DNA of 64,000 nt from a phage. Each line of letters opens with the position of its first letter. The first letter of the stretch is position 1. The position numbers were made by a program, and so were the translations under genes. This document shows positions 6,480 to 59,070 of this stretch, one piece after another. The notes beneath the pieces were generated by a model, which had not been told where the DNA came from, searched no databases, and was given only the letters and a program-made list of their open reading frames with translations. The stretch lies in NCBI GenBank assembly GCA_027262695.1, contig GCA_027262695.1_4722.1; one strand, 5' to 3'.

Positions 6480-6626
6480 CTGGTAGACTTCGGAAACCTT
6501 GAGGTTTAACCGTTCTGCCGTGATGTCGCTTTTAATAATCAGGGTGTCCGTTAGACGCTGCACGCTTTCCGAATAAAGCTGATAGTCAGTGTTGGACACG
6601 ATCGGTCCTCCAAGGAGCCAGTGTAA
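6480..6626. promoter_or_regulatory. divergent intergenic region between the 4188-6479(-) and 6627-9545(+) genes
   Basis: 147 bp non-coding gap between divergently oriented genes; aaggag SD 8 nt before the ATG at 6627; no promoter consensus could be assigned. Confidence 0.3.
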
Positions 6627-9545
6627 ATGAACGATATAAATAAAGGGCGCGTCGCCCTCGAACGTCAAATGAGCAATAATGACGTTGCGAAGGCACTCAT
6701 GAACAAATTTGTCGCTCCTGCTCCGCAGTCACGTCTTTATAACACACGTGAAGCGGAAGGAGCGAGCGGTCGTTTCGGGTTAGTTGTTCCCGACCAGATG
6801 ACGATGAACACGGTGACGCGTGCGACCGCAACAAACGTCGAGGATAATAAAAACATCCTCGAGTTGTTCCCTGAACTTAAACGCGTGATGCAGATCTATG
6901 TTGCCGCGTTGACGAACCCTAACGATCTTAAGACGGTCGAGATGTTCATCGACAGCGAAGATTTCCCCGGCAGAGTCGCAGAAATCGTTCAGCCGATGAT
7001 CGATACCATCGACACGCATTTTAAGAATATCTATAAAATAAAGACGCTTATCCCTCGTATCATCGAAGATGTCTTCTTTATCAAGGGCAGCTATAACTTC
7101 GTTGTTCTGCCTGAAAGCACGCTCGATCGTGCTATTAACGGCAACGGCCAACTGAAACTCGAAGAATACGGATTTAAAAACAATCATTTCGCCAGCTGGG
7201 GGCTGCTGGGGAATGACAGCCGTATACGCAGTCAACATCAGTTACCGACAACGGTTTCGATGGAAGATTATTTTTCAGGCGTTAACGAAACCATCCCGTA
7301 CGATCCGGTTGTCCGTATCGATAGCATCAAGTTTACCAACACGATGCTCCGTGATAAAGACGGTAAATTCATTGAAGCGAAGGTCGATATTCCGGATATG
7401 GTTACGGTTGTTGATAACCCAGACATCCTTCGCATGCCGATTTTACACCAACGTCGTGCGTCAACAGCCGTGCAACGTGCATTACGTGCAAACACCTTAG
7501 GCGGTAACGGCCTGGTGACGTTATCAGGCGATCCGACGCAAACCGCGAATCGACGTGAGCTGACACAAGAGCAAGTTAATGAGATCTGGAATAAACTAAA
7601 CATCCAACGTCATACCAAGGTATCGCCTGTGTACGCACTAGCAACCCCGGATACCCTTGACCGTCAAAGTGTCGGTCATCCTGGTGTGATGCACGTACCA
7701 CCTGAGTCATTAGAACCGGTTCATGCGCCTGGCGATCCAGAGAACCATATCGGTTATCTCGTCCAGCTGGATGAATTCGGTTACCCAGTACGTTTGGTTG
7801 AAGATGCTGCGTATTACAAACAGCTGGAAGGTCGACTGTCGAAGATCACGGCGGATATTGCCGGTACATCAAGCAACGGAATGGCGAGTGAGATGATCGG
7901 GGCAGCGAAGAACATGGTTCAAGGTACGTCGTGTAACCAAGTCGATATGTCAGCGTTTGTCTCGTCGTACGAATCACTGATGCAACGTTATATCGTTGAA
8001 CGTATCGTTAACGGTTACCTCGGCAGTGCGGTAGAAATCGGTGCAACGTCGTCGTTCTATCTGTCGATGCTTGCCCGCAGTCTTGCTCACAAGCAAACCC
8101 GTGTTTTGTTTATTCCTCGTGAGATGGTGACATACATCGCCTACGAATACAACAAATACGGGATTGGACGTTCCTTGCTTGAAAGTACGAAGATGATCTC
8201 TTCGCAACGCGCGATGCTCATGGTTCAGGAACTGATGGCGAAAATCAAAAGTTCGTTGAACTATACGACGCTGAGCGTGATGCTCGAAGACACCGATAGA
8301 AACCCGGTTGATACCGTTGAGCAGGCATTGCACAGTTTTGCTCGTGTTTATCAATCTGGTTTCCCGTTGGGTGAAACCAACCCAATGGATATCATCAATG
8401 CATACGAACGAAGCTCGATTCGATTGAAGGTTGAAGGGAACAACCCACGCTTCCCGAAACTGAACACCGACGTTAGCGTTGAACAACGTAACTACCAATC
8501 CCCGGATGATGAGCTGATGGATCGTTACCGTCGTGATCATTTCATGGGTCTGGGTGTTTCTCCAGAGATCGTTGATACGTCCTATCAATCTGAATTCGCG
8601 GCGTCGGTGATTACGGCTAACGCGATGCAAGAGAAACAGTTCACGGTTTGTCGTGAGGTCGTCACGAATGGCTTAACTGATCACATCAAGAAGTATACGG
8701 CTTACAGTCCTGTGCTTCTGACGTCGTTACGCAATACCGTTCGCGCGAATATGTCAAAGCTCTCTCAAGCGCAGCTGCAACAGCTCTTTGGTAGCGACTT
8801 CGAAAACGGTGTTATTCGTAACGTGAACGCGTATCAGGAGATTGATGATCGATCGGTGACAATGGATCTGGATTACACCAAACCGGAAGTCCAGGAAGTG
8901 ATTGCCGACGCTTATGTCTCCATGTTCTTAAACAGCTTGCAGGTACGTTTACCGGATAGCAACGCGCGTCGCCTTGAAGATCAGGTACGTGAATATAATC
9001 AGTACAAGGAAGCGATTACAGCACAACTTGATGATTATTTAACACCGGATTATGTCATGGGTCTGGGTGGGGTCGATGAAACAACCCTGCAGATGATTCG
9101 AGCGTGCATCATTGGTACGGCGATGAGGACATGGGCGAAAGAAAACAACTTCAATCAGGAGCTGGCTGATCTCTTTAGTCTCGACGATAAGAAGAATGCC
9201 GTCCAGGATTGGAAACGTGCATCCATGGAGCATATTGAAATCATGGGTAAATGCATGGGTGATTTCGCACTCTATATCCAAAACCTGACGAAGCAAATCG
9301 AAGAGAAGATGGGCGACCAAGCACAAGACGGTAGCGTTTCATCTGACGGCTCATGGTCATCGGATTCCGGTTCGGATAGCGGTTCTTCCGATGATTTCGG
9401 TGGTGGTGATGACTTTGGTGGCGACGACGATTTCGGAATGGAAGAAACCGAAGAATCCACCGAGGAAACCACTACGGAAGAAACAACCGATGAAACTGGT
9501 GATAATGCCGCATCAGAAGACGATACCGCAGGTGATATTGTCTAA
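6627..9545 (+). CDS. large hypothetical protein with acidic Ser/Asp/Gly-rich disordered C-terminal tail
   Basis: 972 aa ORF with good SD; C-terminus SSDGSWSSDSGSDSGSSDDFGGGDDFGGDDDFG followed by a Glu/Thr-rich tail. Confidence 0.65.
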   Translation: MNDINKGRVALERQMSNNDVAKALMNKFVAPAPQSRLYNTREAEGASGRFGLVVPDQMTMNTVTRATATNVEDNKNILELFPELKRVMQIYVAALTNPNDLKTVEMFIDSEDFPGRVAEIVQPMIDTIDTHFKNIYKIKTLIPRIIEDVFFIKGSYNFVVLPESTLDRAINGNGQLKLEEYGFKNNHFASWGLLGNDSRIRSQHQLPTTVSMEDYFSGVNETIPYDPVVRIDSIKFTNTMLRDKDGKFIEAKVDIPDMVTVVDNPDILRMPILHQRRASTAVQRALRANTLGGNGLVTLSGDPTQTANRRELTQEQVNEIWNKLNIQRHTKVSPVYALATPDTLDRQSVGHPGVMHVPPESLEPVHAPGDPENHIGYLVQLDEFGYPVRLVEDAAYYKQLEGRLSKITADIAGTSSNGMASEMIGAAKNMVQGTSCNQVDMSAFVSSYESLMQRYIVERIVNGYLGSAVEIGATSSFYLSMLARSLAHKQTRVLFIPREMVTYIAYEYNKYGIGRSLLESTKMISSQRAMLMVQELMAKIKSSLNYTTLSVMLEDTDRNPVDTVEQALHSFARVYQSGFPLGETNPMDIINAYERSSIRLKVEGNNPRFPKLNTDVSVEQRNYQSPDDELMDRYRRDHFMGLGVSPEIVDTSYQSEFAASVITANAMQEKQFTVCREVVTNGLTDHIKKYTAYSPVLLTSLRNTVRANMSKLSQAQLQQLFGSDFENGVIRNVNAYQEIDDRSVTMDLDYTKPEVQEVIADAYVSMFLNSLQVRLPDSNARRLEDQVREYNQYKEAITAQLDDYLTPDYVMGLGGVDETTLQMIRACIIGTAMRTWAKENNFNQELADLFSLDDKKNAVQDWKRASMEHIEIMGKCMGDFALYIQNLTKQIEEKMGDQAQDGSVSSDGSWSSDSGSDSGSSDDFGGGDDFGGDDDFGMEETEESTEETTTEETTDETGDNAASEDDTAGDIV

Positions 9546-12582: not shown

Positions 12583-14379
12583 TCAATCGATTATGTCACG
12601 ATCGTTAATTTCTACAATTTCTTCATCGAATCGACCGACGTCTTTCTTCAAGCCTGCGTTTGTTGCTGCAACGTCATTTGCGATTTGTGGGGTAACGATT
12701 AACCGACCACGATCGTCAATCGGTGCGTACATACTGAACTTCTGGCGTCCGGTTGGTTCGGAGTGCGGAAGATTCAGATAGCTCGCGCAGAACGGGATGG
12801 AACCGCTCACCAAACGACTCTCGTCAGCCAATGCGGCACCGCCCGCATTTTGACTCTGGAGAACAACATGTGTACTTACTTTGAACAGCATGCAGTCACC
12901 AGGTGATTGAATCGAGGTTGCCACTTTCTCGCGTTTATCACGATTGCTCTGGATGTTGAGAATCGCTTCTGTTGCAACTTGATTGCGTAACGCTTTTTGT
13001 ACATCGCGATTGGTCATCTCTTTCCGGTTGTTCTGTCGTTTACCACGTTCAGTGGTTTTAAGATGGAACCCCAGTTTAAAGATGCTCTTACGCACATCCT
13101 CCATGACGTATTCCAACACCATCAGTTCCTTACCGAACATCGTCGTGGTGTCGACACGACTCATTTCGATAGTGACGTTATCAATCAAATACGCCATGAA
13201 TTCGTAGAAGTCGTCGCACGGAATATTTTCCTGTTTGAACTTCTTCTGTTGAATTTCGTCAACGTAAAGATCGAGGCTGTCGATGTGGTGGTTTACATCA
13301 CGCAACAAACGCGCATCCGCGTTGTTGTTATTAAAGATAATCAAACCGAGTAGCGTACGCCAGTGGTCTGGCGCATTCGCGAACTCTTCAACCGGATAGT
13401 CTTCTGGAAAACGATCGTAATAACGGTCGATGAGATAGAGGAACGCACCGACAAGACCGAGCACAATACGTTCCGTGCCGCCACGTCTTACCGCGATTTG
13501 AATATCAGGATGTTTATAACGTACCGCGCTAACGCTACGACTCTTACCGCTTTTGCTAATACTAAAGCCTTTAGGAATAACGCCCATGGTGCGATAGATT
13601 ACCCATTGGTCGCGCGGAAAATCACGTTCAGCGAGATTCCGTCCGGTTATTGCTTCGACGCCTGCAAAACGCCGGAAACATTCACCCACGCCATATTTCG
13701 CAAAGAGATAATGGCCCAACGTGGTTACGCTGGTGTGGTTGATGTTGTCCCCGTTCACCTTGCTTTGTTTGGTAAGGTGATAGATTTGCGACCAGGGCAA
13801 TGACAAGTAATGTCGATAATCATTACCGGTTGGTGTATCATTGCTCAGGAACTGATACGGCGTACGCTTAACGGTGATTTTGTCACGCGGAAGCATGATG
13901 AACGCCATGTCTTTCGTGTAACTGATTACCGGGTCAGCAAGCACCGCACTGAGAATGAAGTTCGCACCACGTAGACGCATCTTGCCACCCTGACCTACCG
14001 CAGGCAATAGGAGAGGATGCCGGATGATGCAGTAATCCTTGCCGGGTTCACGACGGTCACCTGCTTCCATCGCGCCATACCAGCGGAATTCCAGCATCAC
14101 CATGAACACATCGGAAGGCGCAAGGTCGAACGTCAGCTTACCGCTATCCTTCCCTTTGGTTTTCTTTCCTCCGCTTAAGTAGTGAAACTGTTCGCGGGCC
14201 ATACAACGACGTAGGCCATGATACACCAGATCCTTAGGTAAACTATCTTTGCTGTTCCGCCAAAGACGATCGACGTAGGACTCAACATCTTGCATCTTAT
14301 CGACAACGATGTTGCGTGCTATCTTCTCGTTCATCTTCGGTGCAAGCTCAGCGACAGCTTTGCAGAATCTAGGATCCAT
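12583..14379 (-). CDS. hypothetical protein
   Basis: about 598 aa; the track start is GTG at 14382 and the adjacent ATG at 14379 is preferred; preceded by tgtaaggag SD-like sequence; no recognisable catalytic motif. Confidence 0.6.
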   Translation of the reverse strand: MDPRFCKAVAELAPKMNEKIARNIVVDKMQDVESYVDRLWRNSKDSLPKDLVYHGLRRCMAREQFHYLSGGKKTKGKDSGKLTFDLAPSDVFMVMLEFRWYGAMEAGDRREPGKDYCIIRHPLLLPAVGQGGKMRLRGANFILSAVLADPVISYTKDMAFIMLPRDKITVKRTPYQFLSNDTPTGNDYRHYLSLPWSQIYHLTKQSKVNGDNINHTSVTTLGHYLFAKYGVGECFRRFAGVEAITGRNLAERDFPRDQWVIYRTMGVIPKGFSISKSGKSRSVSAVRYKHPDIQIAVRRGGTERIVLGLVGAFLYLIDRYYDRFPEDYPVEEFANAPDHWRTLLGLIIFNNNNADARLLRDVNHHIDSLDLYVDEIQQKKFKQENIPCDDFYEFMAYLIDNVTIEMSRVDTTTMFGKELMVLEYVMEDVRKSIFKLGFHLKTTERGKRQNNRKEMTNRDVQKALRNQVATEAILNIQSNRDKREKVATSIQSPGDCMLFKVSTHVVLQSQNAGGAALADESRLVSGSIPFCASYLNLPHSEPTGRQKFSMYAPIDDRGRLIVTPQIANDVAATNAGLKKDVGRFDEEIVEINDRDIID

Positions 14380-14418
14380 CACACACTCCTTACAGAAAGT
14401 TGCTTAAGCAGATTAAAG

Positions 14419-16142: not shown

Positions 16143-18365
16143 TCAGTTAGTCTGAACCGGCAGCTTGATGTTTTCAGTGTAGACCTTACGCAGGTTCACA
16201 ACGTTGATCAGACCCAGCAGCGGGCAGTTGTTCACGAAACGGCAGCGCGGCTGAACCATGGTTTCTTTAGAAACCTGACCGTTACGAGTAACCTGAGCAA
16301 CGGATACCAGTTCCGGTACGTACAGGAACATACCGAAGGTCAGCGGATCCGGAGAACCCTGGATACCACGAGACAGGGTCACGAAGATCTTGTCGCGCAA
16401 CATGACGTTCGGGTTGTCTACAACCACGAAGTTGAAGCTTACACCCACGGTGCGGAAGTCACCGTCGGTCTGCAGGAACTGCGGGATGTAGTTGTCGGTT
16501 GCTACTACGCAACGCGGTTTCTCATCAGCGTTGGAAGACAGCAGCTGCAGAGCTGGCTGATAACCAGACTCGGAGTACATGCGGTACGCCATTTCACGAA
16601 TCACGTTCATGATCGCAGCGGATACTTCAGCACGACGTTCTGCAGTGGTGGTACCCTGAACGGATTTCTCCAGGTCCAGATCGATTTCTTCGAACCACGG
16701 ACGAATCAGGTAACGACCGAAACCTTCGATCTGAATGTCACCGAACTGACGGAAGCGAGAAGTTGCAACCGCTTTCAGGGCGTCTTTGTAGCTGAACAGT
16801 TTCTCAACCATCAGGTTGTCGAAACGTGCGTTAGCTGCTTGGATCAGAACATCCAGGTCAGCAGCGTTTTCTTCCCAATCCAGCGGACGAGGAATGGAGA
16901 ACGGAGCCAGCAGGCCGATTGCGTAACGTTCTTGCTTCATGTTGAAGTCAAGATGTTTACCGCGTTCACGACGGTTGCTGTTGTTACGACGGATACGCAG
17001 TTCGTAACCCACCAGTTTGAAGCTCAGGTCTTCAGCCAGATCTTTGAATTCCTGGCTCTTACGCGGTTGTTCGATGTTGTCCTGGTCAACCAGACGATAC
17101 AGTTCAGCGGTAGCGCCATTAACACGCAGACCCGCTTTCTCTACGTTGGAAGAACCGTAAACTTCGATCGCCAGCTGAGCAGCAGATTTCGCATCGATGA
17201 TGTCCTGCAGCGCTTCAGCTTTCGCACCTTTAACGTCAACGGTGTTCTCATCAACGAAGATGGAGTGGGTGTCGAACGCCAGGGTCATTTTGCGGAAGTC
17301 GCCTTCCAGGGATTTCTGGAAACCGTTGGTGATCAGACCGGATACGTCGAACGGAACGTAAGAGGTTTTGCTGTGCTTGGTGGATTTAATTTCCACCAGG
17401 ATTTTGGTCAGCGTGATCTGAGCATCCAGCGCGTCAGTGTTGTCGCTGTAACCGTTAGCCAGAATGCTATCGTCTTCAGCGATACCGATCATGTCGATCA
17501 GTTTATCAACCGCCAGGTAAGACGTTTTGTAAGTAACGCCTTTGATTTCGATGTCGCGCGGAGCAACGATGGTTTTATCAACGAAGTACTGCGCGTTAGC
17601 ATCGTCAGCACGGTAGATCGGATGCAGATCGGTCACGTCGTTGGACAGAACGTCGTTGTACATGAACGCATCCAGCAGCGGACGACGTACCCAATCAGCC
17701 GGAGTACCATCACCGTTACGACGCAGGTGGTTGAACACCAGCGGACGACGGAAGGAAACGTCATAACCGATCTGGTTCGGAGCCAGAACGATGGTGTTGT
17801 ACAGTTCGTTACCCATGCGGCTCAGACGAGACGCCTTCACGTTGAACACAACGGAGTACGGCATCATGTCACGCAGTTCTTTCTGGTCGTAGGACAGCTG
17901 AACCAGTTCTTCAGATTCACAACCGCAGGAATCCGCAGCCATCATGACGAAGTTAGCGCTGTCAACATCACGGCCGGACGGCGAGGTGCTGATGTTCATG
18001 GAACGTGCTTGTTTAGCATATTCCACCGGGTTGCCATGTGCCAGCATGATCAGCGCTGCAGCGCGAGCCTGCTGTGCGTTCATGGTGAACAGCTGTTCTT
18101 CAATACGTTGCTTCTCTTCCGGAGTTGTGGTTTCGAAGCCCAGCATGGACAGAACCGGTTCTTCAGCTTTACGGATGTCGCTGCTGAAGCTCTTAACATC
18201 CATTTCGTTAACCAGTTTGTCCATGGATTTGAAATCAACCTTAGAAGCAGATTCCATAGACAGGAAGGTGTTTTCCAGACCTTTGTCTGCTGGTTTGCTA
18301 CCATTAGCGGTCAGGAACTGGCGAGTGGCCGCGACCTGTTGGCTAAGAAGGGTTTTATCATTCAT
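16143..18365 (-). CDS. putative major capsid protein (highly expressed virion protein)
   Basis: 740 aa, the size class of jumbo-phage major capsid proteins; codon usage strongly biased to CTG/CGT/GGT/AAC/TTC unlike its neighbours; helical N-terminal region resembling a propeptide; the function is inferred, not matched to a database. Confidence 0.45.
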   Translation of the reverse strand: MNDKTLLSQQVAATRQFLTANGSKPADKGLENTFLSMESASKVDFKSMDKLVNEMDVKSFSSDIRKAEEPVLSMLGFETTTPEEKQRIEEQLFTMNAQQARAAALIMLAHGNPVEYAKQARSMNISTSPSGRDVDSANFVMMAADSCGCESEELVQLSYDQKELRDMMPYSVVFNVKASRLSRMGNELYNTIVLAPNQIGYDVSFRRPLVFNHLRRNGDGTPADWVRRPLLDAFMYNDVLSNDVTDLHPIYRADDANAQYFVDKTIVAPRDIEIKGVTYKTSYLAVDKLIDMIGIAEDDSILANGYSDNTDALDAQITLTKILVEIKSTKHSKTSYVPFDVSGLITNGFQKSLEGDFRKMTLAFDTHSIFVDENTVDVKGAKAEALQDIIDAKSAAQLAIEVYGSSNVEKAGLRVNGATAELYRLVDQDNIEQPRKSQEFKDLAEDLSFKLVGYELRIRRNNSNRRERGKHLDFNMKQERYAIGLLAPFSIPRPLDWEENAADLDVLIQAANARFDNLMVEKLFSYKDALKAVATSRFRQFGDIQIEGFGRYLIRPWFEEIDLDLEKSVQGTTTAERRAEVSAAIMNVIREMAYRMYSESGYQPALQLLSSNADEKPRCVVATDNYIPQFLQTDGDFRTVGVSFNFVVVDNPNVMLRDKIFVTLSRGIQGSPDPLTFGMFLYVPELVSVAQVTRNGQVSKETMVQPRCRFVNNCPLLGLINVVNLRKVYTENIKLPVQTN

Positions 18366-18514: not shown

Positions 18515-19135
18515 TCACAAACGACGCAGGCGATAATGGATGGAACGATTGGTGCAATATGAACGGAACAGCGGTAATTGCGCAACTTCCGCAAGACTCA
18601 TATTAATTCGCAGATGTTCGATAACCGCGCTGTAGTTATCGGCGATACGATCGCTCAGTAACTCTTCTGCCAATAAAGGAAGACAATCGACAACGATGGC
18701 GATCACATCCTCATTAACATAACGCACCCGAACATTGAGTGGACGTTTGTCTGGGCCGTAAGTTGGATCCGCCAAACGACGTTCAATATCGCGTGGATAG
18801 CTCGTCAGTAAATGGTAATAACCATTGTCATAACGATTGATGTACTCACACAGCACATCAACATTCTTCTCTGGCGGCAAACCTGTTTCGTCATAGTGAT
18901 ACGCAAACATACCACCAAGCAGGTTGTTAAGATGAACAGCCGCATTCGTTTGTTCGTGTTCTTTCGTAATGAAGAAAGGCACGTTCTGAGCTGCGAAATA
19001 AAAACCTACATCATTGGGCGATAGTATGCCGAAAAGACTTTTAGGATCCAACAGCACCTGTAAGTCATCACGCGCATTTCGCATAATCGCGTGTTCTACC
19101 CAATTCGGAACGACGAGATATCGGAGTTCCTTCAT
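18515..19135 (-). CDS. hypothetical protein
   Basis: 206 aa ORF. Confidence 0.55.
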   Translation of the reverse strand: MKELRYLVVPNWVEHAIMRNARDDLQVLLDPKSLFGILSPNDVGFYFAAQNVPFFITKEHEQTNAAVHLNNLLGGMFAYHYDETGLPPEKNVDVLCEYINRYDNGYYHLLTSYPRDIERRLADPTYGPDKRPLNVRVRYVNEDVIAIVVDCLPLLAEELLSDRIADNYSAVIEHLRINMSLAEVAQLPLFRSYCTNRSIHYRLRRL

Positions 19136-19171
19136 TATGATTACCTCTTTGTAAGTATCGAAAGGATTGAG

Positions 19172-20785
19172 TCGATGGACCCAAAACAGATAGCCATTAA
19201 GATTATTACGTTACTGTTTCGTAATGCACAATTGAACCATCCCGATCCCAGTACGATCGAACATGTTAAATCCGTCTTAGATAAAATCGAACCCCCGAAA
19301 AACCATCTCACCGTTGATGTGGATAGAGAGGTTTTCAACAACCTGATGAACACCATTCATTGGATGTTGGAACAACCGTTATCGGAACCTTTCGATAAAC
19401 AACAGTTGCTACAAAGGATACGTTTAGATTGCCTGGAACAAAGCCACGTTTACGAAATTCTCGCCGACGGATTGTACGATATCGAAGACGATGCTCATAT
19501 CAGTAAGGTCTGTTCGCTTTACTACAATGAATTACGTAATCTGATTACCCGTCGTCGTGTATTTGAAACCTTTAAAAACACGTACATGGATATCAGTAAC
19601 GGCCGCCTTGGGGACAAAGAATTTTTCGACGCGATGGCGAATTTGAAACTATCGCTAGATACCATCGAAATGGATACTGAAAACCCCGAAGAAATGTCCT
19701 GTATGATTGACGGCTTCATCGCTGATAGTGAAGACGATATTGAAAAAGTCGAACGTATGTTCGTTAAGGCGATGGAGCGTAACAGTCCTGAAGGGGGATT
19801 TGTCACCGGCTGGCAGGGGTTTAATAAAATGTTGGGGTCGGTCGGCGTATTACGTCGTGGTACTCTAGGATTGATTGGTGCGATGCAACACCGTAATAAA
19901 TCAGGGGTGTTATTAAAACTTTTCACCCACCTGGCGTTGTACAATAAACCCCATTTCTTTTTTCCGGAGCGCGCAAAGAAAGCCTTATTGATTCATCTCT
20001 CAACAGAGAACGAAGTTGAAGAAAACACGCTTCAAATCTACAAGAACATGCGAGAACAGGAAACAGGTGAATATGTCGATATTCGTAAGATTGACCCACG
20101 TGAAGCTTCACGCTATGTACTGAACGTTTTCAATAATGCGGGGTTCTCTGTCTGCATGCGTCGTGTTGATGGAATGAGCTATAAACAACTTGCTAACCTT
20201 ATCGACCATTTTGAACGTATGGGTTATGAAGTTATGGCTTTGTTCATCGACTATCTAAAAATGTTCTCGTCAGAAGGATTAGATAGGAATGGGCCTACGG
20301 GCGCTTGGCTGCAAGAACTCTTCAACAAAGTACGTAACCTCTGTAGCGTTAAACGTATTTTAGGTATGACCGTACACCAGTTGTCTTCTGATGCGAAGAT
20401 GCGGGCACGTGATGGTAACGATGAAGAATTTGTTGACCAAGTCGCCGGTTTAAGTTACTGGGATGGATGTAAAGGGATTGACCGTGAGATTGACCTTGAG
20501 GTAATTGTTGATATCGTTAAGGAACCTGGCAAACGTCAAAGCTGGCAGGTCTTTGCGCTAGGGAAAGACCGTCAACCGGATAACGGCTCAACAAAACCTG
20601 AAGATAAACATTTTGCGATGCCGTTCCAAACCATCGGGATGCTTCCTGACGATTACGGTAAGAAAGCGGTGTATTGCCGCAAGGTTGGCGGACAACCGGT
20701 CTCTGAAGGAGGCAAAGGTCCGTGGAACAAGTTTGATGAACATGCCGCACCGAGTAATGAACTACAATTTGATTTAGAATTCTAA
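19172..20785 (+). CDS. hypothetical protein
   Basis: The track ORF starts at 19091 but overlaps the minus gene; the ATG at 19172 with aaaggattg SD is the likely start; about 537 aa; followed by hairpin 20813-20843. Confidence 0.6.
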   Translation, partial: SMDPKQIAIKIITLLFRNAQLNHPDPSTIEHVKSVLDKIEPPKNHLTVDVDREVFNNLMNTIHWMLEQPLSEPFDKQQLLQRIRLDCLEQSHVYEILADGLYDIEDDAHISKVCSLYYNELRNLITRRRVFETFKNTYMDISNGRLGDKEFFDAMANLKLSLDTIEMDTENPEEMSCMIDGFIADSEDDIEKVERMFVKAMERNSPEGGFVTGWQGFNKMLGSVGVLRRGTLGLIGAMQHRNKSGVLLKLFTHLALYNKPHFFFPERAKKALLIHLSTENEVEENTLQIYKNMREQETGEYVDIRKIDPREASRYVLNVFNNAGFSVCMRRVDGMSYKQLANLIDHFERMGYEVMALFIDYLKMFSSEGLDRNGPTGAWLQELFNKVRNLCSVKRILGMTVHQLSSDAKMRARDGNDEEFVDQVAGLSYWDGCKGIDREIDLEVIVDIVKEPGKRQSWQVFALGKDRQPDNGSTKPEDKHFAMPFQTIGMLPDDYGKKAVYCRKVGGQPVSEGGKGPWNKFDEHAAPSNELQFDLEF

Positions 20786-53717: not shown

Positions 53718-55028
53718 TTACGCGATGATGGAGTCGAGTTTCGCTGACGCTTTGAACAGATCGTTGTTCATTGTTGAAGAAAGGACTTGCTGAATCTCTT
53801 CCTGTTTAACGGCTTTACGAACCCCAGGACGAAGGATAAGCGTAACCATCTGCGAGAAGGTACGATTATTGTTCATCACACTCAGTGTTTCATCGATTGT
53901 TTTGATGGTATCCAACGTCATGGAACGAACATCGCTTGGGATATCACGATCTTTCAGGCGTATGATTAAATCTTGTTTGATTTTACGGAATCGTTCCATG
54001 TCGTTATCGTAAATGTTGTATGTTGGATCTAACCAAACCGAAAGCGCGGTTACCGCTACAACAACTAACACGCCGATAGCACCAACAGAAGCTAAACCTA
54101 TCGCCATCATGGAGACGATAGTAGCATCCATGATGAAGGAGAGCCAGAACATCGTTTTGGACTTCATGGAGTTGGTACCATAAAGTCGAAACATTTTAGC
54201 AAGCCCGCTAACGAGATACTCCCCACCACCATGACGCGTAGCGAACTGATCAGCCATGAATTCGGAAGCAACGTCGGTATAGCGTCCAGCGTTGTTGACA
54301 TTTCTTAACTGCATCGCTTTGTTAGAAACATAAACCGTGTACCAGACATTACCATCGTCTGAATCGCTGATTTTGTTTACGTCGACGTTAGTATCCAGCG
54401 TTTTGTTTAACGCCTTAGCCAGTTCAATACGTTTTACCTTATCGGTTGTCCCTAGCAGTTCACGCTGTACAGTCATGATTGAGGCTTCAACACGAACCGT
54501 TTCCGATAATGTTTCAAGGAAAGTAAATGCGTGCCCGATTTCATGCAGCATTATGGCCGCTTTTTCTTCCGGAATAAATGGTTCTGTCGCTGTTAGCAAT
54601 TCATACGTGATGGCGGAACGAATCTTCAATTCCTCAAAGATACCGTAAACACGACCTTTTTCTAAATCGACATAACCGACAGGCGTATCTTTAATCTTCT
54701 TAAGGAGTGTGACACCATCGGCACCGCGCATCCATAATCGATGATAGTCTGCCATGATCGTGTTGTTTGTCGAAATATCCGGCGGGTACACGTAGGCGTT
54801 CATCTGGCCCATTTTCACATCAACCGAAAATTCGATGTTCAACCCTGTATAGCGTTTAACCATCTCGGTTAAATGACCGTCCTTGAAAACGTTTAAAACC
54901 TCTTTTTTATCCAGTCCTTGTTTGCTTCTGAAGAACTCGGTCATTTCCTTGAACAAAGAACCATCCTGGAATTTGATGGCCTCCATCGTTAACTCGTCAT
55001 GACCATACACACGTTGTAGTAATGACAT
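53718..55028 (-). CDS. membrane-anchored zinc metallopeptidase (HExxH, M48/HtpX-like architecture)
   Basis: 436 aa; HEIGH zinc-binding motif in MLHEIGHAF; hydrophobic transmembrane block WLSFIMDATIVSMMAIGLASVGAIGVLVVVAVTALSVWL. Confidence 0.5.
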   Translation of the reverse strand: MSLLQRVYGHDELTMEAIKFQDGSLFKEMTEFFRSKQGLDKKEVLNVFKDGHLTEMVKRYTGLNIEFSVDVKMGQMNAYVYPPDISTNNTIMADYHRLWMRGADGVTLLKKIKDTPVGYVDLEKGRVYGIFEELKIRSAITYELLTATEPFIPEEKAAIMLHEIGHAFTFLETLSETVRVEASIMTVQRELLGTTDKVKRIELAKALNKTLDTNVDVNKISDSDDGNVWYTVYVSNKAMQLRNVNNAGRYTDVASEFMADQFATRHGGGEYLVSGLAKMFRLYGTNSMKSKTMFWLSFIMDATIVSMMAIGLASVGAIGVLVVVAVTALSVWLDPTYNIYDNDMERFRKIKQDLIIRLKDRDIPSDVRSMTLDTIKTIDETLSVMNNNRTFSQMVTLILRPGVRKAVKQEEIQQVLSSTMNNDLFKASAKLDSIIA

Positions 55029-55210
55029 TTTACACTCTCTAAATTTACGTAAATTTAAGGGTTGGTTAAAAGCAGGTTGGCTGGCCTCGCCAATCTGTCA
55101 CAGCCGTTGTGCTGCAACGGCATTCATAGAAATACCTTCGGTTAAAAACAACAGAACGTGAGGATGATATAGAAATTCACCTTCTAACCTTTATTAGAGT
55201 CTATCACGTT
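55029..55210. promoter_or_regulatory. divergent intergenic region containing a hairpin
   Basis: 182 bp between divergent genes; inverted repeat gccgttg-tgctg-caacggc near 55102-55120; no promoter consensus assigned. Confidence 0.3.
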
Positions 55211-56710
55211 ATGAGCGAACAAGAACAAAAACTCAAGAAGAAACTGCTCGGTATTCAATGTCGACACATCAGTTATAACGAAGCCAACGACGGCAGTAAG
55301 AACGATCTCATGATTGCAAAAGAGATCATGTTCTTCGATGACAACACACAAGCCACCAACCTGCGGTTCTTTGAAAACCACAAACGTCCGTTTTGGGTTA
55401 CAGTTGAAAGCAAACGTAAGAACAAATATAAAAAGGAAAGCGAGAAGCTCTCAAACGTACGTCGTTATGAGGTACGCCAAAGCGAACTGGTTGAGAAAAT
55501 CAGTTCGGTGCTTTATAAACGACGTGCTGACGATAACACCCGTTTACAACAGCTTGCGCGGAGTCCTTACCTCTATGGAACGGACGTTAGCGCCAGCTGC
55601 TATTTAAAAACCCAGTACAATACAAAATGGCCGGAATACGTTGATAAACTGCCTGCTTCTATCGCATGTTTCGATATCGAAACCGACGTTGTCCACGGGC
55701 ACGGTAAGATCGTTTGTATGTCTATTACAATGGGCTACAACGCGATTCTTTGTTACACCCAGGACTTCGTTGGTCATATTCCGAATGCGATTGAGAAAAC
55801 CCGTGAGAAGATTCGTTATTACCTGGCCGACCGTTTAAACACCAAAGAGGATCCTCACGCCTTTGAAAAATACCATTACGATATTCGCATTGTAGAAAGC
55901 CCTGCGCAAGCGGTGATTCAATGCATGCAGAAGGTGCACGAATGGCAGCCGGATTATCTCCTTGGCTGGAACATCGCGTTCGATATTCCGCGTATGCTCC
56001 AGGCATTGCAGGACGAAGGTTATCGTCCCGAGGATGTTTTCTCCGATCCTCGCGTACCACCGAAATACCGTTTAGCACGTTGGGTACCCCCGAAAACCGA
56101 CAAGGTATCGGCGTCAGGTCGTAAAACCAACCTGACGCTTGAACAGACCTGGCCGATGTTTTATACGATGGCCACCTATCAAGTCATGGATGCCATGTGT
56201 GGTTATAAGTTCGTTCGTTTAGGAAGACCGGATGAAGGACGCTACTCACTCGATGCGGTGTTAGAGCGTAATAAATGCCATACGAAATTAAAAGCAATTC
56301 CTGGTACAGAAGGGTTCACAGAGCTCGCCTGGCACGAAGAGATGCAAACGAACCATCAAATCGACTACGGCGTATATAACCTTTGGGATAACCAAGGTAT
56401 TGAGGCGTTGGACCAGAAAACAAAAGACTATTCGATGACCATCCCGATTCGTTTAGCGGCGTCGGATTTGAAAGATTTCAGTTCCAACCCTAAACGTATC
56501 TGCGATAAACTTTTCTTCGTTTATCTTAACCGTGGGGAAGTCATGGGATGCACCGCCGACGACATGACCCAGGAAGAAGATAAATGGGTTATCTCACGAG
56601 CAGGACATATCGTCACATTACCGTGCGATCTCATGGCGGACAACGGCATTCATCTCTTCTGGGATATGCCGAATCTAAGAAGCTATATTCGATTATTTGT
56701 TGCGGATTGA
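55211..56710 (+). CDS. family-B-DNA-polymerase-type 3'-5' exonuclease domain protein (exon 1, split polymerase candidate)
   Basis: 499 aa; Exo I CFDIETD, Exo II LLGWNIAFDIPRM, Exo III YGVYNLWD; no polymerase motifs A/B/C present; the 3' end may include intron-derived sequence. Confidence 0.6.
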   Translation: MSEQEQKLKKKLLGIQCRHISYNEANDGSKNDLMIAKEIMFFDDNTQATNLRFFENHKRPFWVTVESKRKNKYKKESEKLSNVRRYEVRQSELVEKISSVLYKRRADDNTRLQQLARSPYLYGTDVSASCYLKTQYNTKWPEYVDKLPASIACFDIETDVVHGHGKIVCMSITMGYNAILCYTQDFVGHIPNAIEKTREKIRYYLADRLNTKEDPHAFEKYHYDIRIVESPAQAVIQCMQKVHEWQPDYLLGWNIAFDIPRMLQALQDEGYRPEDVFSDPRVPPKYRLARWVPPKTDKVSASGRKTNLTLEQTWPMFYTMATYQVMDAMCGYKFVRLGRPDEGRYSLDAVLERNKCHTKLKAIPGTEGFTELAWHEEMQTNHQIDYGVYNLWDNQGIEALDQKTKDYSMTIPIRLAASDLKDFSSNPKRICDKLFFVYLNRGEVMGCTADDMTQEEDKWVISRAGHIVTLPCDLMADNGIHLFWDMPNLRSYIRLFVAD

Positions 56711-56777
56711 GAAAGAAGTCGGTTAAGTTTTACTTCCTTATTCGATATGTATGATACTAAACGAGTAAGGAGTTGAT

Positions 56778-57884
56778 ATGTCTAGTAGTTACGAGTATCC
56801 AAATATTACTGAATGTGTAATTTCTGAAGAAGGTATCTTCGACCTTGATATGAAACCGTTACCGCTTATCGTGGAAGACGGGATTTCATACGTCAAGCTT
56901 GACTGGTATCGCGGTCCTGGATTGTACGATGCGGGTCTTGTTGTAATGCGTAAGTTACACGCTATCAACATATACGAAGACCTGTTAGATGAAGCACATT
57001 CGCTGTATATCGATGGAAACCCGGAAAACATCAAACGTGATAACCTGCTTTATCGTTTTAAGAACGGTAAGTTGGAACATAAGGGTTACCCAGGCTATTA
57101 CTACGTCCCGTTCTTTACACATTACGTGATAAATGAACAAGGCGAAGTGATCAGTCTATTAACGGGTCAGAAGAAATCGTGGACACGATCAAAAGGAGAT
57201 CCAAAGCGAAACAAACGCGCAGGGTATCTCTATCAACGTGTCGTTAACGACAACGGCTTCACAGCCCAGATGTTTCAACACCGTGCGATGGGTTACGTGT
57301 TCTTGGAATACGGTGCCGATGTGATGACTAAGATCATCAATCACAAGAACGGCATCAAATGGGATAACCGTCCCGGCAACATTGAATGGACAACCTATTC
57401 CGAGAACAACAAGCATGCGGTTGATAGCGGTCTTCGTACCGAAGGCTTGCATCCCGTTAAGGTTAAGGATTACAACACCGGTGAAATCAGGGTATTCCCA
57501 ACGATCGCTGCGTGCTGTGCTGCTTACCCTTGCTTGGAACGTAAACGTGTTTGGTATTGGATGACGCGTAAAACGAAATTCATGCCAGCCTGCAATCTGT
57601 ATTTCAAAGAAGTCGATGATGATACACCATGGCCAGAATGGCAGATTGGACAGCACCGCCGTCTTCAGGAATACGATATGGGCCAGCCTATCGCTGCTAT
57701 CGATAAACAAACCGGTAAACGTTATGTGTTCGCATCAGTCGCTCATGCACAACGAGAGACAGGTGTTTCTAACGTGACTATCACGAAGTACTGTCGTAAC
57801 AGACTCACAGAAGGTCGTTCCCCATTCATCTTCCGTTATTTCGAAGATGTCGGCTCGATGCCTGTAGGTCTTAACGACGCTTAA
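56778..57884 (+). CDS. HNH homing endonuclease (HNH_3 type), intron-encoded
   Basis: 368 aa; strong taaggag SD; catalytic motif INHKNGIKWDNRPGNIEWTTYSENNKH; located 5' of the group I ribozyme core. Confidence 0.75.
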   Translation: MSSSYEYPNITECVISEEGIFDLDMKPLPLIVEDGISYVKLDWYRGPGLYDAGLVVMRKLHAINIYEDLLDEAHSLYIDGNPENIKRDNLLYRFKNGKLEHKGYPGYYYVPFFTHYVINEQGEVISLLTGQKKSWTRSKGDPKRNKRAGYLYQRVVNDNGFTAQMFQHRAMGYVFLEYGADVMTKIINHKNGIKWDNRPGNIEWTTYSENNKHAVDSGLRTEGLHPVKVKDYNTGEIRVFPTIAACCAAYPCLERKRVWYWMTRKTKFMPACNLYFKEVDDDTPWPEWQIGQHRRLQEYDMGQPIAAIDKQTGKRYVFASVAHAQRETGVSNVTITKYCRNRLTEGRSPFIFRYFEDVGSMPVGLNDA

Positions 57885-57889
57885 CCGAT

Positions 57890-58240
57890 TTTAGGTCCCG
57901 GTGGGGATAACGCCCCCACCGGTTTCCCGTTAATTGCTGGAACCCCCTAAAGCCTTTCGACCACAGCGGATTCTGAAAAGAAAGACGTTACGGTTAGAAA
58001 ACAGAAAGGATGTTCGTAAGGAAACGATAAATGGGCAATCAGCAGCGAAGCTTCTAAGGGCATGCATAAGCAATAAGACCTAAGAAGAACGTTCAACGAC
58101 TATCCGGTCGCGCGGAGTAAGGGACAAGCGTCCTCAAACACGGGAGGGGTGCGAAAGCATTCCATGATATAGTCTGCTCCTAAGTGAAAGCTTAGGCGGG
58201 TGGAACACACCGGCATAAGAGTTGCGTCTTATGTGGACAA
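57890..58240 (+). ncRNA. group I intron catalytic core (IA-like)
   Basis: P2-like hairpin ccggtgggg-ataacg-ccccaccgg (57898-57921); P aattgctggaa (57932-57942); Q aatcagcagc (58037-58046); R gttcaacgacta (58091-58102); S gatatagtc (58166-58174); P9-like hairpin cctaag-tgaaag-cttagg. Confidence 0.65.
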
Positions 58241-58282
58241 TGGCTTGACATCTCATCATCCTACCCTAACGGGCAGATCCTT

Positions 58283-58498
58283 TTGAATCTATCCAGAGCG
58301 TGCGTATTTCGTGAGCTTTCACGGATTGAGGGCGTCTCTGATTATCAATTCAGGAAGCTGGGTATTAACTTCATCACGGGCGGTAAAACGAATGCGGTTG
58401 ACTTCTGCCGAATCGTTCACAAAGCCCCGTCGATGTTCGAACTGTTAGCGCATTTTGACGCAACACGTCCGAAGGAAGCGCCAAAGACCCTTGATTGA
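58283..58498 (+). CDS. candidate 3' exon of the intron-interrupted exonuclease gene
   Basis: The frame is open from 58196 (TAG at 58193-58195 lies inside the intron P9 stem) to the stop at 58498; the track start is TTG; same frame as exon 1 given an intron length divisible by 3; about 75-100 codons. Confidence 0.35.
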   Translation: MNLSRACVFRELSRIEGVSDYQFRKLGINFITGGKTNAVDFCRIVHKAPSMFELLAHFDATRPKEAPKTLD

Positions 58499-58536
58499 AT
58501 TGAAACATTCAAAAAAAAAAAGAAACGCATGCGAAG

Positions 58537-58568
58537 CCCCTCCCCTGGCGGAAGCCGGAGGGAGGGGT
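58537..58568. terminator. conserved GC-rich hairpin (family copy 10) flanked by an A-tract and T-runs
   Basis: cccctccc-ctggcggaagccgga-gggagggg; A11 at 58511-58521 and gttttatgcgttttatgc downstream; between convergent genes. Confidence 0.65.
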
Positions 58569-58584
58569 GGAGGTTTTATGCGTT

Positions 58585-59070
58585 TTATGCGCGTTCGCTG
58601 CTAACCATGACTTTATAATCAGCGTCGGTTAAGAAGATAGACAGGAATCCATGTTCTTTGCAAAGCTCACTAAGGACCTCGGTAATGATTTCATTGATCA
58701 ATGGTTTATTTGCGAGAGCGTAGATATACCCATCAGTAAAAGAAAGGGCATGTTTAATCATCGGCTCATGAGACACCAGGACAAGGATCACATGGTGTTG
58801 ACCATCATCGGTAACGACCGCTTGCGTCGACACAAAGAAACCAGTGAAGCCGCATTGGTAACTGGCTTTAGGGATATATAAATCACCTAAAGCTTCGTCA
58901 CGCGCTTTCATGTGGGTTTCAGGCGTGATGCTACTAAGCTGATCTTCGGCGATATCCAGAGTCTCTTCAACGGTTTTCAGAATGGCTTCTTTGAAATCCT
59001 TGCGGTAGACCTGGATAATTTCACGGTCGTTGATGTAATCGCCGGATTCGATGGTAAAGTTCAAGTTCAT
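58585..59070 (-). CDS. small protein, tandem paralogue family D
   Basis: 161 aa; N-terminus MNLNFTIES... resembles the family D N-termini. Confidence 0.5.
   Translation of the reverse strand: MNLNFTIESGDYINDREIIQVYRKDFKEAILKTVEETLDIAEDQLSSITPETHMKARDEALGDLYIPKASYQCGFTGFFVSTQAVVTDDGQHHVILVLVSHEPMIKHALSFTDGYIYALANKPLINEIITEVLSELCKEHGFLSIFLTDADYKVMVSSERA

Follow-up and report, generated by a model that had tools for sequence, protein, structure and literature searches.

The phage DNA stretch analysed here (64,000 nucleotides [nt]; GenBank assembly GCA_027262695.1, contig GCA_027262695.1_4722.1; hereafter the window) carries a DNA polymerase gene that is interrupted by a group I intron with an embedded HNH homing endonuclease gene. 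Coordinates are positions in this 64-kb stretch unless another locus is named. The region was ~88% identical to the DNA of Escherichia phage vB_EcoM_Goslar (locus L001), a nucleus-forming jumbo phage (chimallivirus) infecting E. coli. By sequence similarity the window phage is a Goslar-like chimallivirus, and the phiKZ-type major head protein, the DnaB-like helicase and the phiKZ gp123 homologue encoded in the window are consistent with this assignment. The locus consists of the following features:

55211-56707, + strand: exon 1, codons 1-499, covering the N-terminal domain, the 3'-5' exonuclease motifs Exo I, Exo II and Exo III and the start of the palm; ends ...FVAD (GCG GAU)
56708-58243, + strand: group I intron, 1536 nt; opens with UGA (in-frame stop codon of the unspliced message) and closes with terminal G58243
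56778-57884, + strand: homing endonuclease gene, 368 amino acids (aa), with HNH_3 and NUMOD1
57898-58243, + strand: ribozyme core and peripheral helices, from covariance model, lineage comparison and folding
58244-58498, + strand: exon 2, codons 500-583 and stop codon; opens with LDISSSYPN, polymerase motif A

Homologues of the open reading frame (ORF) upstream of the insert and of the frame downstream of it were found in ~280 to 300 jumbo-phage records. In phiKZ-like, Ralstonia, Erwinia and Vibrio phages the polymerase was encoded by one contiguous gene of 554 to 638 codons, and the protein alignment ran unbroken through ...H[VI]AD-LD[IV]xSxYP... over the junction. Window exon 1 ends with ...FVAD and the downstream match starts with LDISSSYPN, which places the end of exon 1 at the GAU codon finishing at 56707 and the start of exon 2 at the CUU codon at 58244. 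In a blastn comparison, the similarity to Goslar DNA ended at 56708 and restarted at 58243, with only two short core segments matching in between. Furthermore, a metagenomic Goslar-like contig of 237 kb (L011) contained an uninterrupted polymerase gene, the product of which (P0001, 583 aa) was 96% identical to the predicted spliced protein. With an arrow marking the splice junction, its DNA is GTTGCAGAC↓CTTGACATT and reads GCAGAC↓CTTGAC; the intron-less site sequence of this type is TTCGTTGCAGAC↓CTTGACATTAGCAGTTCATACCC, and the window's similarity to the L011 DNA ended at 56706. The spliced 583-aa product matched phrog_3011 ("DNA polymerase") in a single stretch, with residues 7-576 on positions 4-570/576 (E 1.7e-176). 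The alignment of homologues, the Goslar breakpoints, the intron-less allele and the single PHROG match together fix the intron at 56708-58243 at the sequence level. As in group I introns, the insert is preceded by U and its terminal base is G. Its removal restores the host reading frame exactly by joining GAU to CUU, and the site lies between the codons of D499 and L500, one codon 5' of the motif A catalytic aspartate codon.

These boundaries differ from the original prediction, made from the window sequence, which had placed the intron at 56711-58195: the 5' splice site lies 3 nt upstream and the 3' splice site 48 nt downstream of those ends. That prediction also had the frame of the upstream gene reopen after a TAG within a P9-like stem. 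The TAG (58193-58195) indeed lies in the 3' strand of P9, but the 48 nt at 58196-58243 are intronic, although the frame is open there; they contain the P9.1 and P9.2 hairpins and a 3' tail with the terminal G. An exon 2 beginning at 58196 was rejected, as 58244 is where the match to the homologues, to Goslar and to the intron-less allele starts in each case. The intron-less homologues showed no native stop codon at the end of exon 1 and ran through the junction into the sequence encoded by 58244-58498.

The upstream ORF (55211-56710) had been described as a PolB-type exonuclease gene on the basis of the motifs FDIET, NIAFD and YNLWD, all of which are present. In a family alignment of 51 sequences, the residues of Exo I (DxE; D155/E157), Exo II (Nx3FD; N254/D258) and Exo III (Yx3D; Y389/D393) were invariant, and so were D499, D501, Y506 and P507, which span the exon junction at motif A (DxxSxYP). 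Pfam searches with the single sequences of exon 1 and exon 2 and a phmmer search of the Protein Data Bank (PDB) with the spliced protein returned nothing useful. Because single-sequence searches failed to recognise the polymerase, a family profile and a structure model were needed. The profile of the 51 sequences matched family B polymerases of the RB69/T4 type (E 1e-4). The match comprised three segments in collinear order, and the third paired "aDLDvsstYPn" with motif A of RB69 gp43, "SFDLTSLYPS". On the sequence alignment, D501 is assigned as the catalytic aspartate of motif A (RB69 D411). An AlphaFold model of the intron-less orthologue P0001, which stood in for the spliced product, had a pLDDT (predicted local distance difference test score) of 85.4 and was confident for residues 1-460 and weak beyond. 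In a Foldseek search of the PDB this model matched RB69 gp43 with an E of 3.6e-12 and a probability of 1.0, and further matches were T4 polymerase, Pol epsilon and E. coli Pol II.

In phiKZ-type phages the polymerase is a divergent family B enzyme (PMC7824862), and in phiKZ-like phages it is split into subunits (PMC5105663). Together with this literature, the profile, the fold match and the invariant motifs identify the interrupted gene as the N-terminal subunit of a phiKZ-type split family B polymerase, comprising the N-terminal domain, the proofreading exonuclease and motif A. The PolB-type nature and the interruption of the gene are thus confirmed by the RB69 gp43 profile and Foldseek matches and by the contiguous intron-less orthologues, but the gene is that of a polymerase subunit rather than of an exonuclease, and the intron lies in motif A. 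The spliced protein stops 77 residues past motif A. No C-terminal partner subunit was found among the ten largest window ORFs tested; ORF 12583-14382 (- strand) was considered for this role and rejected, since it is a homologue of the phiKZ non-virion RNA polymerase subunit gp123 (PDB 7OGP, E 6e-41).

We searched the window for RNA families with covariance models. The Rfam group I intron model RF00028 matched at 57871-58196 on the + strand over its full length (positions 1-253), scoring 69.9 bits where the gathering score is 50 (E 1.1e-15). Nothing else in the 64 kb matched an RNA family, also at a permissive threshold. The four conserved core elements P, Q, R and S that had been read from the letters occur in the proposed order and coincide with P4, P4'/P6, P7 and P7' of the RF00028 alignment, and the complementarity of R and S proposed to form P7 is present as a fully paired helix, GACUA/UAGUC. 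The elements of the core are located as follows:

57898-57906/57914-57922, + strand: P2
57924-57928/58142-58146, + strand: P3
57931-57941, + strand: P element aattgctggaa, on P4 of the RF00028 alignment
57935-57940/58039-58044, + strand: P4, followed by a P5 extension of ~75 nt
58037-58046, + strand: Q element aatcagcagc, on P4'/P6 of the RF00028 alignment
58051-58054/58084-58087, + strand: P6
58091-58102, + strand: R element gttcaacgacta, on P7 of the RF00028 alignment
58098-58102/58170-58174, + strand: P7
58103-58116, + strand: P7.1, UCCG-GUCGCG-CGGA
58121-58135, + strand: P7.2, with the hairpin GGGAC-AAGC-GUCC at 58121-58133
58147-58152/58157-58162, + strand: P8
58166-58174, + strand: S element gatatagtc, on P7' of the RF00028 alignment
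58179-58184/58191-58196, + strand: P9, the 3' strand of which (CTTAGG) holds the TAG at 58193-58195
~58198-58213, + strand: P9.1
58214-58233, + strand: P9.2

P2, P3, P4, P6, P7, P8 and P9 were all fully paired in the window. Pairing was also complete in the five intron lineages of the polymerase gene, and P2, P3, P6 and P7 showed compensatory changes. P7 GACUA/UAGUC, for instance, is replaced by GACCA/UGGUC in Goslar, and P6 CUUC/GAAG by ACCC/GGGU. A MAFFT alignment of seven intron cores misaligned P8/P7' of Goslar, and the helices were instead checked by a script, lineage by lineage, which placed a few strand positions at the wrong occurrence and left the pairing counts unaffected. Shuffled sequence folded less well than the core (z -2.8). 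Another metagenomic contig, L010 (183 kb), carried the same intron type as the window, and the core (57885-58243) of the two was 98.6% identical (5 differences in 359 nt), compared with 89.6% for the endonuclease gene, 87% for the intron leader and 80% for exon 2, showing that the catalytic RNA is the most constrained sequence of the locus. The Rfam match, the compensatory changes across lineages and the conservation of the core support the earlier identification of the insert as a group I intron. In the Rfam alignment, P7 (R) and P3' are separated by an insertion of 34 nt, which the hairpins P7.1 and P7.2 fill; P7.1 is kept in Goslar. With P7.1/P7.2 and with P9.1/P9.2 before the terminal G, the intron appears to be of the IA2-like phage subgroup, as judged by inspection and with no subgroup model.

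The gene within the intron encodes an HNH homing endonuclease, as had been proposed from its motif. Its further features are as follows:

56766-56771, + strand: Shine-Dalgarno-like AAGGAG, 6 nt 5' of the start codon, kept in L010
57330-57410, + strand: HNH_3 motif, residues 185-211, with the predicted catalytic His189
57711-57791, + strand: NUMOD1, residues 312-338

Both Pfam domains scored above their cut-offs (HNH_3, 34.4 bits against 24.8; NUMOD1, 25.4 bits against 22.8), and the protein matched the PHROG HNH endonuclease family phrog_59 (E 1e-21). It shared 34% identity over the HNH core with gp210 of phage PhiPA3 (E 2e-25). His189 aligned with His82 of gp210, and the mutation H82R abolishes nicking by gp210 (PMC11620839). 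Comparison with the L010 endonuclease revealed 99 synonymous and 11 non-synonymous codon differences, indicating that the endonuclease is under purifying selection. On the model of gp210 and of I-HmuI-family enzymes, it is most likely a site-specific nickase of intron-less alleles.

The first reading of the sequence had remarked that an endonuclease ORF 5' of P2 is in an uncommon position. This holds for group I introns generally, but it is the standard layout in the known introns of this phage family, and the elements around the ORF suggest how it is accommodated:

56704-56708, + strand: P1 5' strand GGAU↓U, with the splice site after U56707 and a predicted U.G wobble with G57895
56715-56728, + strand: P1a 5' strand, a predicted long-range helix closing the endonuclease-gene loop
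57879-57892, + strand: P1a 3' strand, including the endonuclease stop codon UAA (57882-57884)
57894-57898, + strand: internal guide sequence GGUCC (P1 3' strand), directly before P2

The sequence (A)G(G)UCC before P2 was invariant in the window, L010, Goslar, another Goslar-like relative (L009), Pseudomonas phage HPP-Temi (L007) and L015, though the flanking sequences differ. This guide can base-pair with the exon end GGAU↓U, and the pairing includes the U.G wobble that is required at the splice site. At this position L011, which lacks the intron, reads GCA GAC (A at -4, C at -1), whereas the four alleles with an intron all read GCG GAU; the G at -4 and the U at -1 are both synonymous changes, and both pair with GUCC. 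P1a consists of 14 base pairs (bp) and closes a 1.15-kb loop that contains the endonuclease gene. The energy of this duplex was reached by few of 500 shuffles (4 for the window, 7 for L010 and 2 for HPP-Temi), and the minimum-energy fold of a mini-intron reproduced it. The sole P1a substitution in L010, G56718A, leaves the pair intact (G.U to A-U). At the P1a position, Goslar, HPP-Temi and the ORF-less L015 intron had equivalent helices that differ in sequence, and the L015 intron has the same P1/P1a hairpin with a 9-nt loop in place of the ORF. The conserved guide and the P1a helix thus point to a P1/P1a architecture in which the endonuclease ORF would lie in an extended P1 loop. GUCGGU (intron nt 11-16) was also considered as the guide, in which case the ORF would fall between P1 and P2. 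It was rejected because L010 has A in place of the G needed opposite the splice-site U; this segment is better explained as the P1a 5' strand.

Goslar-like phages that are ~90% identical in DNA differed in their polymerase alleles: L011 is intron-less, the window and L010 carry what we call the type-a intron, and Goslar and L009 carry type b. The type-b intron (L001 4748-6509 in Goslar) occupies exactly the window's site but is strongly diverged, with cores alignable only in conserved segments and endonucleases 42% identical to those of type a. The Goslar-type intron has large extra insertions in P5 and P6. Among these relatives the intron type tracks the phage lineage. Over the 20 residues flanking the site in either direction, all five alleles encode an identical protein. 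Within 30 nt upstream of it (56678-56707), the intron-bearing alleles matched one another at 28 to 30 positions and L011 at 23 to 24. In the first 30 nt downstream (58244-58273), identity between the allele classes was 15 to 25 of 30, with serine codons switching between TCN and AGY, as against 24 to 30 of 30 in later 30-nt bins. Synonymous recoding confined to ~30 nt on each side is expected from co-conversion tracts, from target-site immunity, or from both. The intron would thus be mobile, homing by means of its endonuclease.

We then surveyed the top 120 homologue clusters from a database of 5.8 billion proteins and sorted the interrupted ones by their C-termini. About 25 of the 120 clusters were interrupted, at one of four sites. 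About 12 clusters ended exactly with ...AD, which is the window's site, 4 to 5 ended with ...ADLD, 6 nt downstream (e.g. Pseudomonas phage HPP-Temi and L015), 3 ended shortly past ...ADLDV, and about 6 broke at a second conserved motif, DWI↓VTLP. Relative to the window's site, the other introns lie 6 nt and ~9 nt downstream and ~35 codons upstream. A group I core was present in every interrupted locus examined (L007, L009, L010, L013, L015, L020, L021, L022 and L023), and the covariance model found no group I core in the intron-less alleles L011 and L012. The HNH ORF of L020 and L021 was positioned as in the window, and the introns of L015 and L023 were ORF-less. The chimallivirus family B polymerase is therefore a major, so far undescribed intron target, with motif A as a recurrent site.

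Several of these loci showed further variations. The ADLD↓IV site holds an ORF-containing intron in HPP-Temi (L007 3335-5056) and an ORF-less one in L015 (5477-5897). This site and that of the window both follow G-GAU and share the GUCC guide, which would permit a shift between sites by reverse splicing; the 6-nt displacement could have arisen from ectopic reverse splicing through the same guide. The distant chimallivirus contig L022 contained two tandem group I cores within its polymerase gene (4893-5255 and 5372-5735), the first of which follows DWI↓VTLP. In L013, where exon 1 appears to continue beyond ADLD by a few codons, the core (5471-5824) comes right after exon 1 and P1 holds no ORF; an HNH_3 ORF (6081-7043) lies on the opposite strand downstream of the intron. 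L021 (6429-7076) has an extra 215-aa ORF between the HNH endonuclease ORF and the core of its window-site intron.

Considering these data, we favour an active mobile group I intron whose HNH endonuclease gene is carried within it and which interrupts the polymerase gene of a Goslar-like chimallivirus at motif A, with a probability of roughly 0.88. In the folding pre-mRNA, the exon end GGAU↓U would pair with the guide GGUCC at 57894-57898 to form P1, and the 14-bp P1a (56715-56728 with 57879-57892) would span the 1.15-kb loop and place exon end and guide next to each other. A guanosine would start transesterification at U56707, and the attack at G58243 that follows would join GAU to CUU. Splicing would restore the 583-aa polymerase subunit, while translation of unspliced RNA would end at the UGA formed by the first three intron bases. 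The endonuclease encoded in the loop, with HNH and NUMOD1 of the I-HmuI and PhiPA3 gp210 type, would by analogy nick intron-less alleles near the insertion site during co-infection, and recombinational repair would copy the intron with short flanking exon tracts into the cut genome.

Several observations weigh against this interpretation. Splicing is inferred from sequence and not from RNA. P1 has only 4 to 5 bp and was unrecovered by minimum-energy folding, which instead paired the 5' exon (56696-56709) with Q/P4' (58036-58049) over 13 bp. This pairing is probably a folding artefact, because the exon resembles the P element, but it could at most be an alternative, inactive conformer. No convincing P10 was found, with 2 bp conserved at most. 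The P1a duplex of the Goslar type was not exceptional, being equalled by 121 of 500 shuffles, and the Goslar intron scored 44.7 bits, below the Rfam gathering score; the type-b introns of Goslar and L009 (44.7 to 47 bits, E ~1e-9) are nevertheless significant, though sub-threshold. The endonuclease had no sequence-detectable match to a solved structure in a phmmer search of the PDB. Moreover, its gene differed from that of L010 about as much as exon 1 did (10.4% and 8.5% of nucleotides, respectively), which fits long vertical co-inheritance as well as recent homing.

This last point, together with the intron type following the phage lineage, suggests long residence and would suit an intron that still splices while its endonuclease no longer homes and persists only as a vertically inherited passenger, a maturase-like helper or a nuclease against competitors; PhiPA3 gp210 indeed demonstrates that such enzymes can act in competition rather than in simple homing. 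We nevertheless consider the loss of homing unlikely, given the strong purifying selection and the intact HNH motif, the presence and absence of the intron among close relatives, the occurrence of ORF-less and ORF-containing versions within the same intron family, and the localised differences in the flanking exons that are typical of co-conversion. In addition, no maturase-type domain was found. Far less probable still is a gene that is truly split without splicing, expressed as a 499-aa protein and a small C-terminal peptide, with a free-standing endonuclease and the decayed relic of a ribozyme between them. The phiKZ-like polymerase is already a split-subunit enzyme (PMC5105663), and Goslar gp068 is entered in GenBank and RefSeq with a length of 499 aa, but the supposed relic is the best-conserved stretch of the locus (98.6%) and shows compensatory changes. 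Independent translation of motif A (58244-58270) could not occur, as the frame of exon 2 has no in-frame start codon ahead of the TTG at 58283, and the orthologues are contiguous, with the junction-spanning D499, D501, Y506 and P507 invariant. The possibilities of an intein, of a group II intron and of an assembly artefact can be dismissed. Inteins also occur at active-site motifs of essential genes such as the one broken here, but this insert opens with a stop codon and is out of frame with the exons; among the Rfam families it matched that of group I introns alone, and the same arrangement was found in the independent assemblies of the window, L010, Goslar and L009.

Beyond the active mobile intron itself, a more tentative proposal, which we regard as possible but doubtful, is that the motif A codons of chimallivirus polymerases are a contested homing site at which intron endonucleases drive interference competition and an arms race. 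By analogy with PhiPA3 gp210, the endonuclease could be imported into a shared or hybrid phage nucleus and nick the essential polymerase gene of intron-less or differently recoded competitors. If so, the intron would determine fitness and act in speciation instead of being a neutral parasite. Interference competition by intron endonucleases of nucleus-forming phages has so far been shown only for PhiPA3 against phiKZ, and the natural intron-less, type-a and type-b alleles in phages that are ~90% identical provide a tractable E. coli system for it.

The intron also affects the annotation of Goslar, in which gp068 is listed as a 499-aa "DNA polymerase" without motif A and gp069 as a "NUMOD1 domain protein", followed by ~800 nt without annotation. 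Exon 2 of Goslar (L001 6510-6764; NC_048170.1 ~82949-83203) is unannotated in both GenBank and RefSeq. The real product in Goslar and its relatives would be a 583-aa protein with the motif A aspartate rather than the truncated 499-aa protein, a correction that affects knock-down, CRISPR, antisense and proteomic work on this essential polymerase gene.

Elsewhere in the window, the context genes include those of the phiKZ-type major head protein and the divergent DnaB-like helicase (16143-18365, - strand; 19091-20785, + strand). A promoter and terminator scan of 54900-58700 gave no excess of sites over shuffled sequence. A long G+C-rich hairpin, CCCCTCCC...GGGAGGGG, lies at 58537-58567 (region 58511-58578) between the polymerase gene and a convergent minus-strand ORF of 161 aa. 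With an A-run before it and a T-run after it, the hairpin resembles a bidirectional terminator, and it was missed by the simple terminator scan.

Full-text literature searches returned no description of an intron within the gene for DNA polymerase in Goslar or in another chimallivirus. The closest known system is that of PhiPA3 (Birkholz et al. 2024, PMC11620839), in which a group I intron within gp211/209, the gene of the virion RNA polymerase beta subunit, encodes the HNH nicking endonuclease gp210. This enzyme nicks target DNA that lacks the intron and plays a part in competition between phages (PMC11620839). Like the window element, gp210 and phiKZ gp179 belong to nucleus-forming chimalliviruses, and the order exon 1, endonuclease, core and exon 2 is the same. 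The covariance model located the core directly after the ORF in both the PhiPA3 (59.9 bits) and phiKZ (92.2 bits) elements, which share short, highly conserved core segments with the window intron and are likewise inserted after a conserved catalytic-site aspartate codon. The identity between phiKZ gp179 and the window endonuclease was 28.5%. The window element differs from that of PhiPA3 in that it belongs to an E. coli phage and its host gene is a DNA polymerase, interrupted at motif A, and not an RNA polymerase subunit gene. In addition, the window endonuclease has ~110 N-terminal aa that are absent from gp210. Nicking, homing and competition are experimental findings for gp210, whereas for the window endonuclease they are predictions.

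Introns with HNH nicking endonucleases are also known in phage DNA polymerase genes, namely those of I-HmuI/I-HmuII, I-BasI and I-PfoP3I (PMC11620839, PMC12908238). As in the window, these systems combine a group I intron and an HNH/NUMOD-type endonuclease at a conserved motif of a replicative polymerase gene. I-HmuI and I-HmuII come from the Bacillus phages SPO1 and SP82, I-BasI from Bastille and I-PfoP3I from Pf-WMP3. Among related phages of this group, introns sharing a site are similar while their ORFs are highly divergent, much as with the window and Goslar types. The polymerases of SPO1/SP82, Bastille and Pf-WMP3 are family A enzymes, whereas that of the window is a divergent split family B enzyme, and the endonuclease ORFs of those introns are not known to lie in the P1 loop. 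The td, nrdB and sunY introns of T4 and the Twort introns (IA2) resemble the window intron in having P7.1/P7.2 between P7 and P3', P9.1/P9.2 before the terminal G, an in-frame stop codon soon past the 5' splice site and a host gene of nucleotide metabolism or replication. In T4, the intron ORFs are found in the loops of P6a or P9.1, and their products are endonucleases of the GIY-YIG or other families, whereas the window ORF, predicted to lie in an extended P1 loop, encodes an HNH enzyme. The element is thus of the classical kind known from SPO1, Bastille, Pf-WMP3, T4 and Twort and holds no conceptual surprise.

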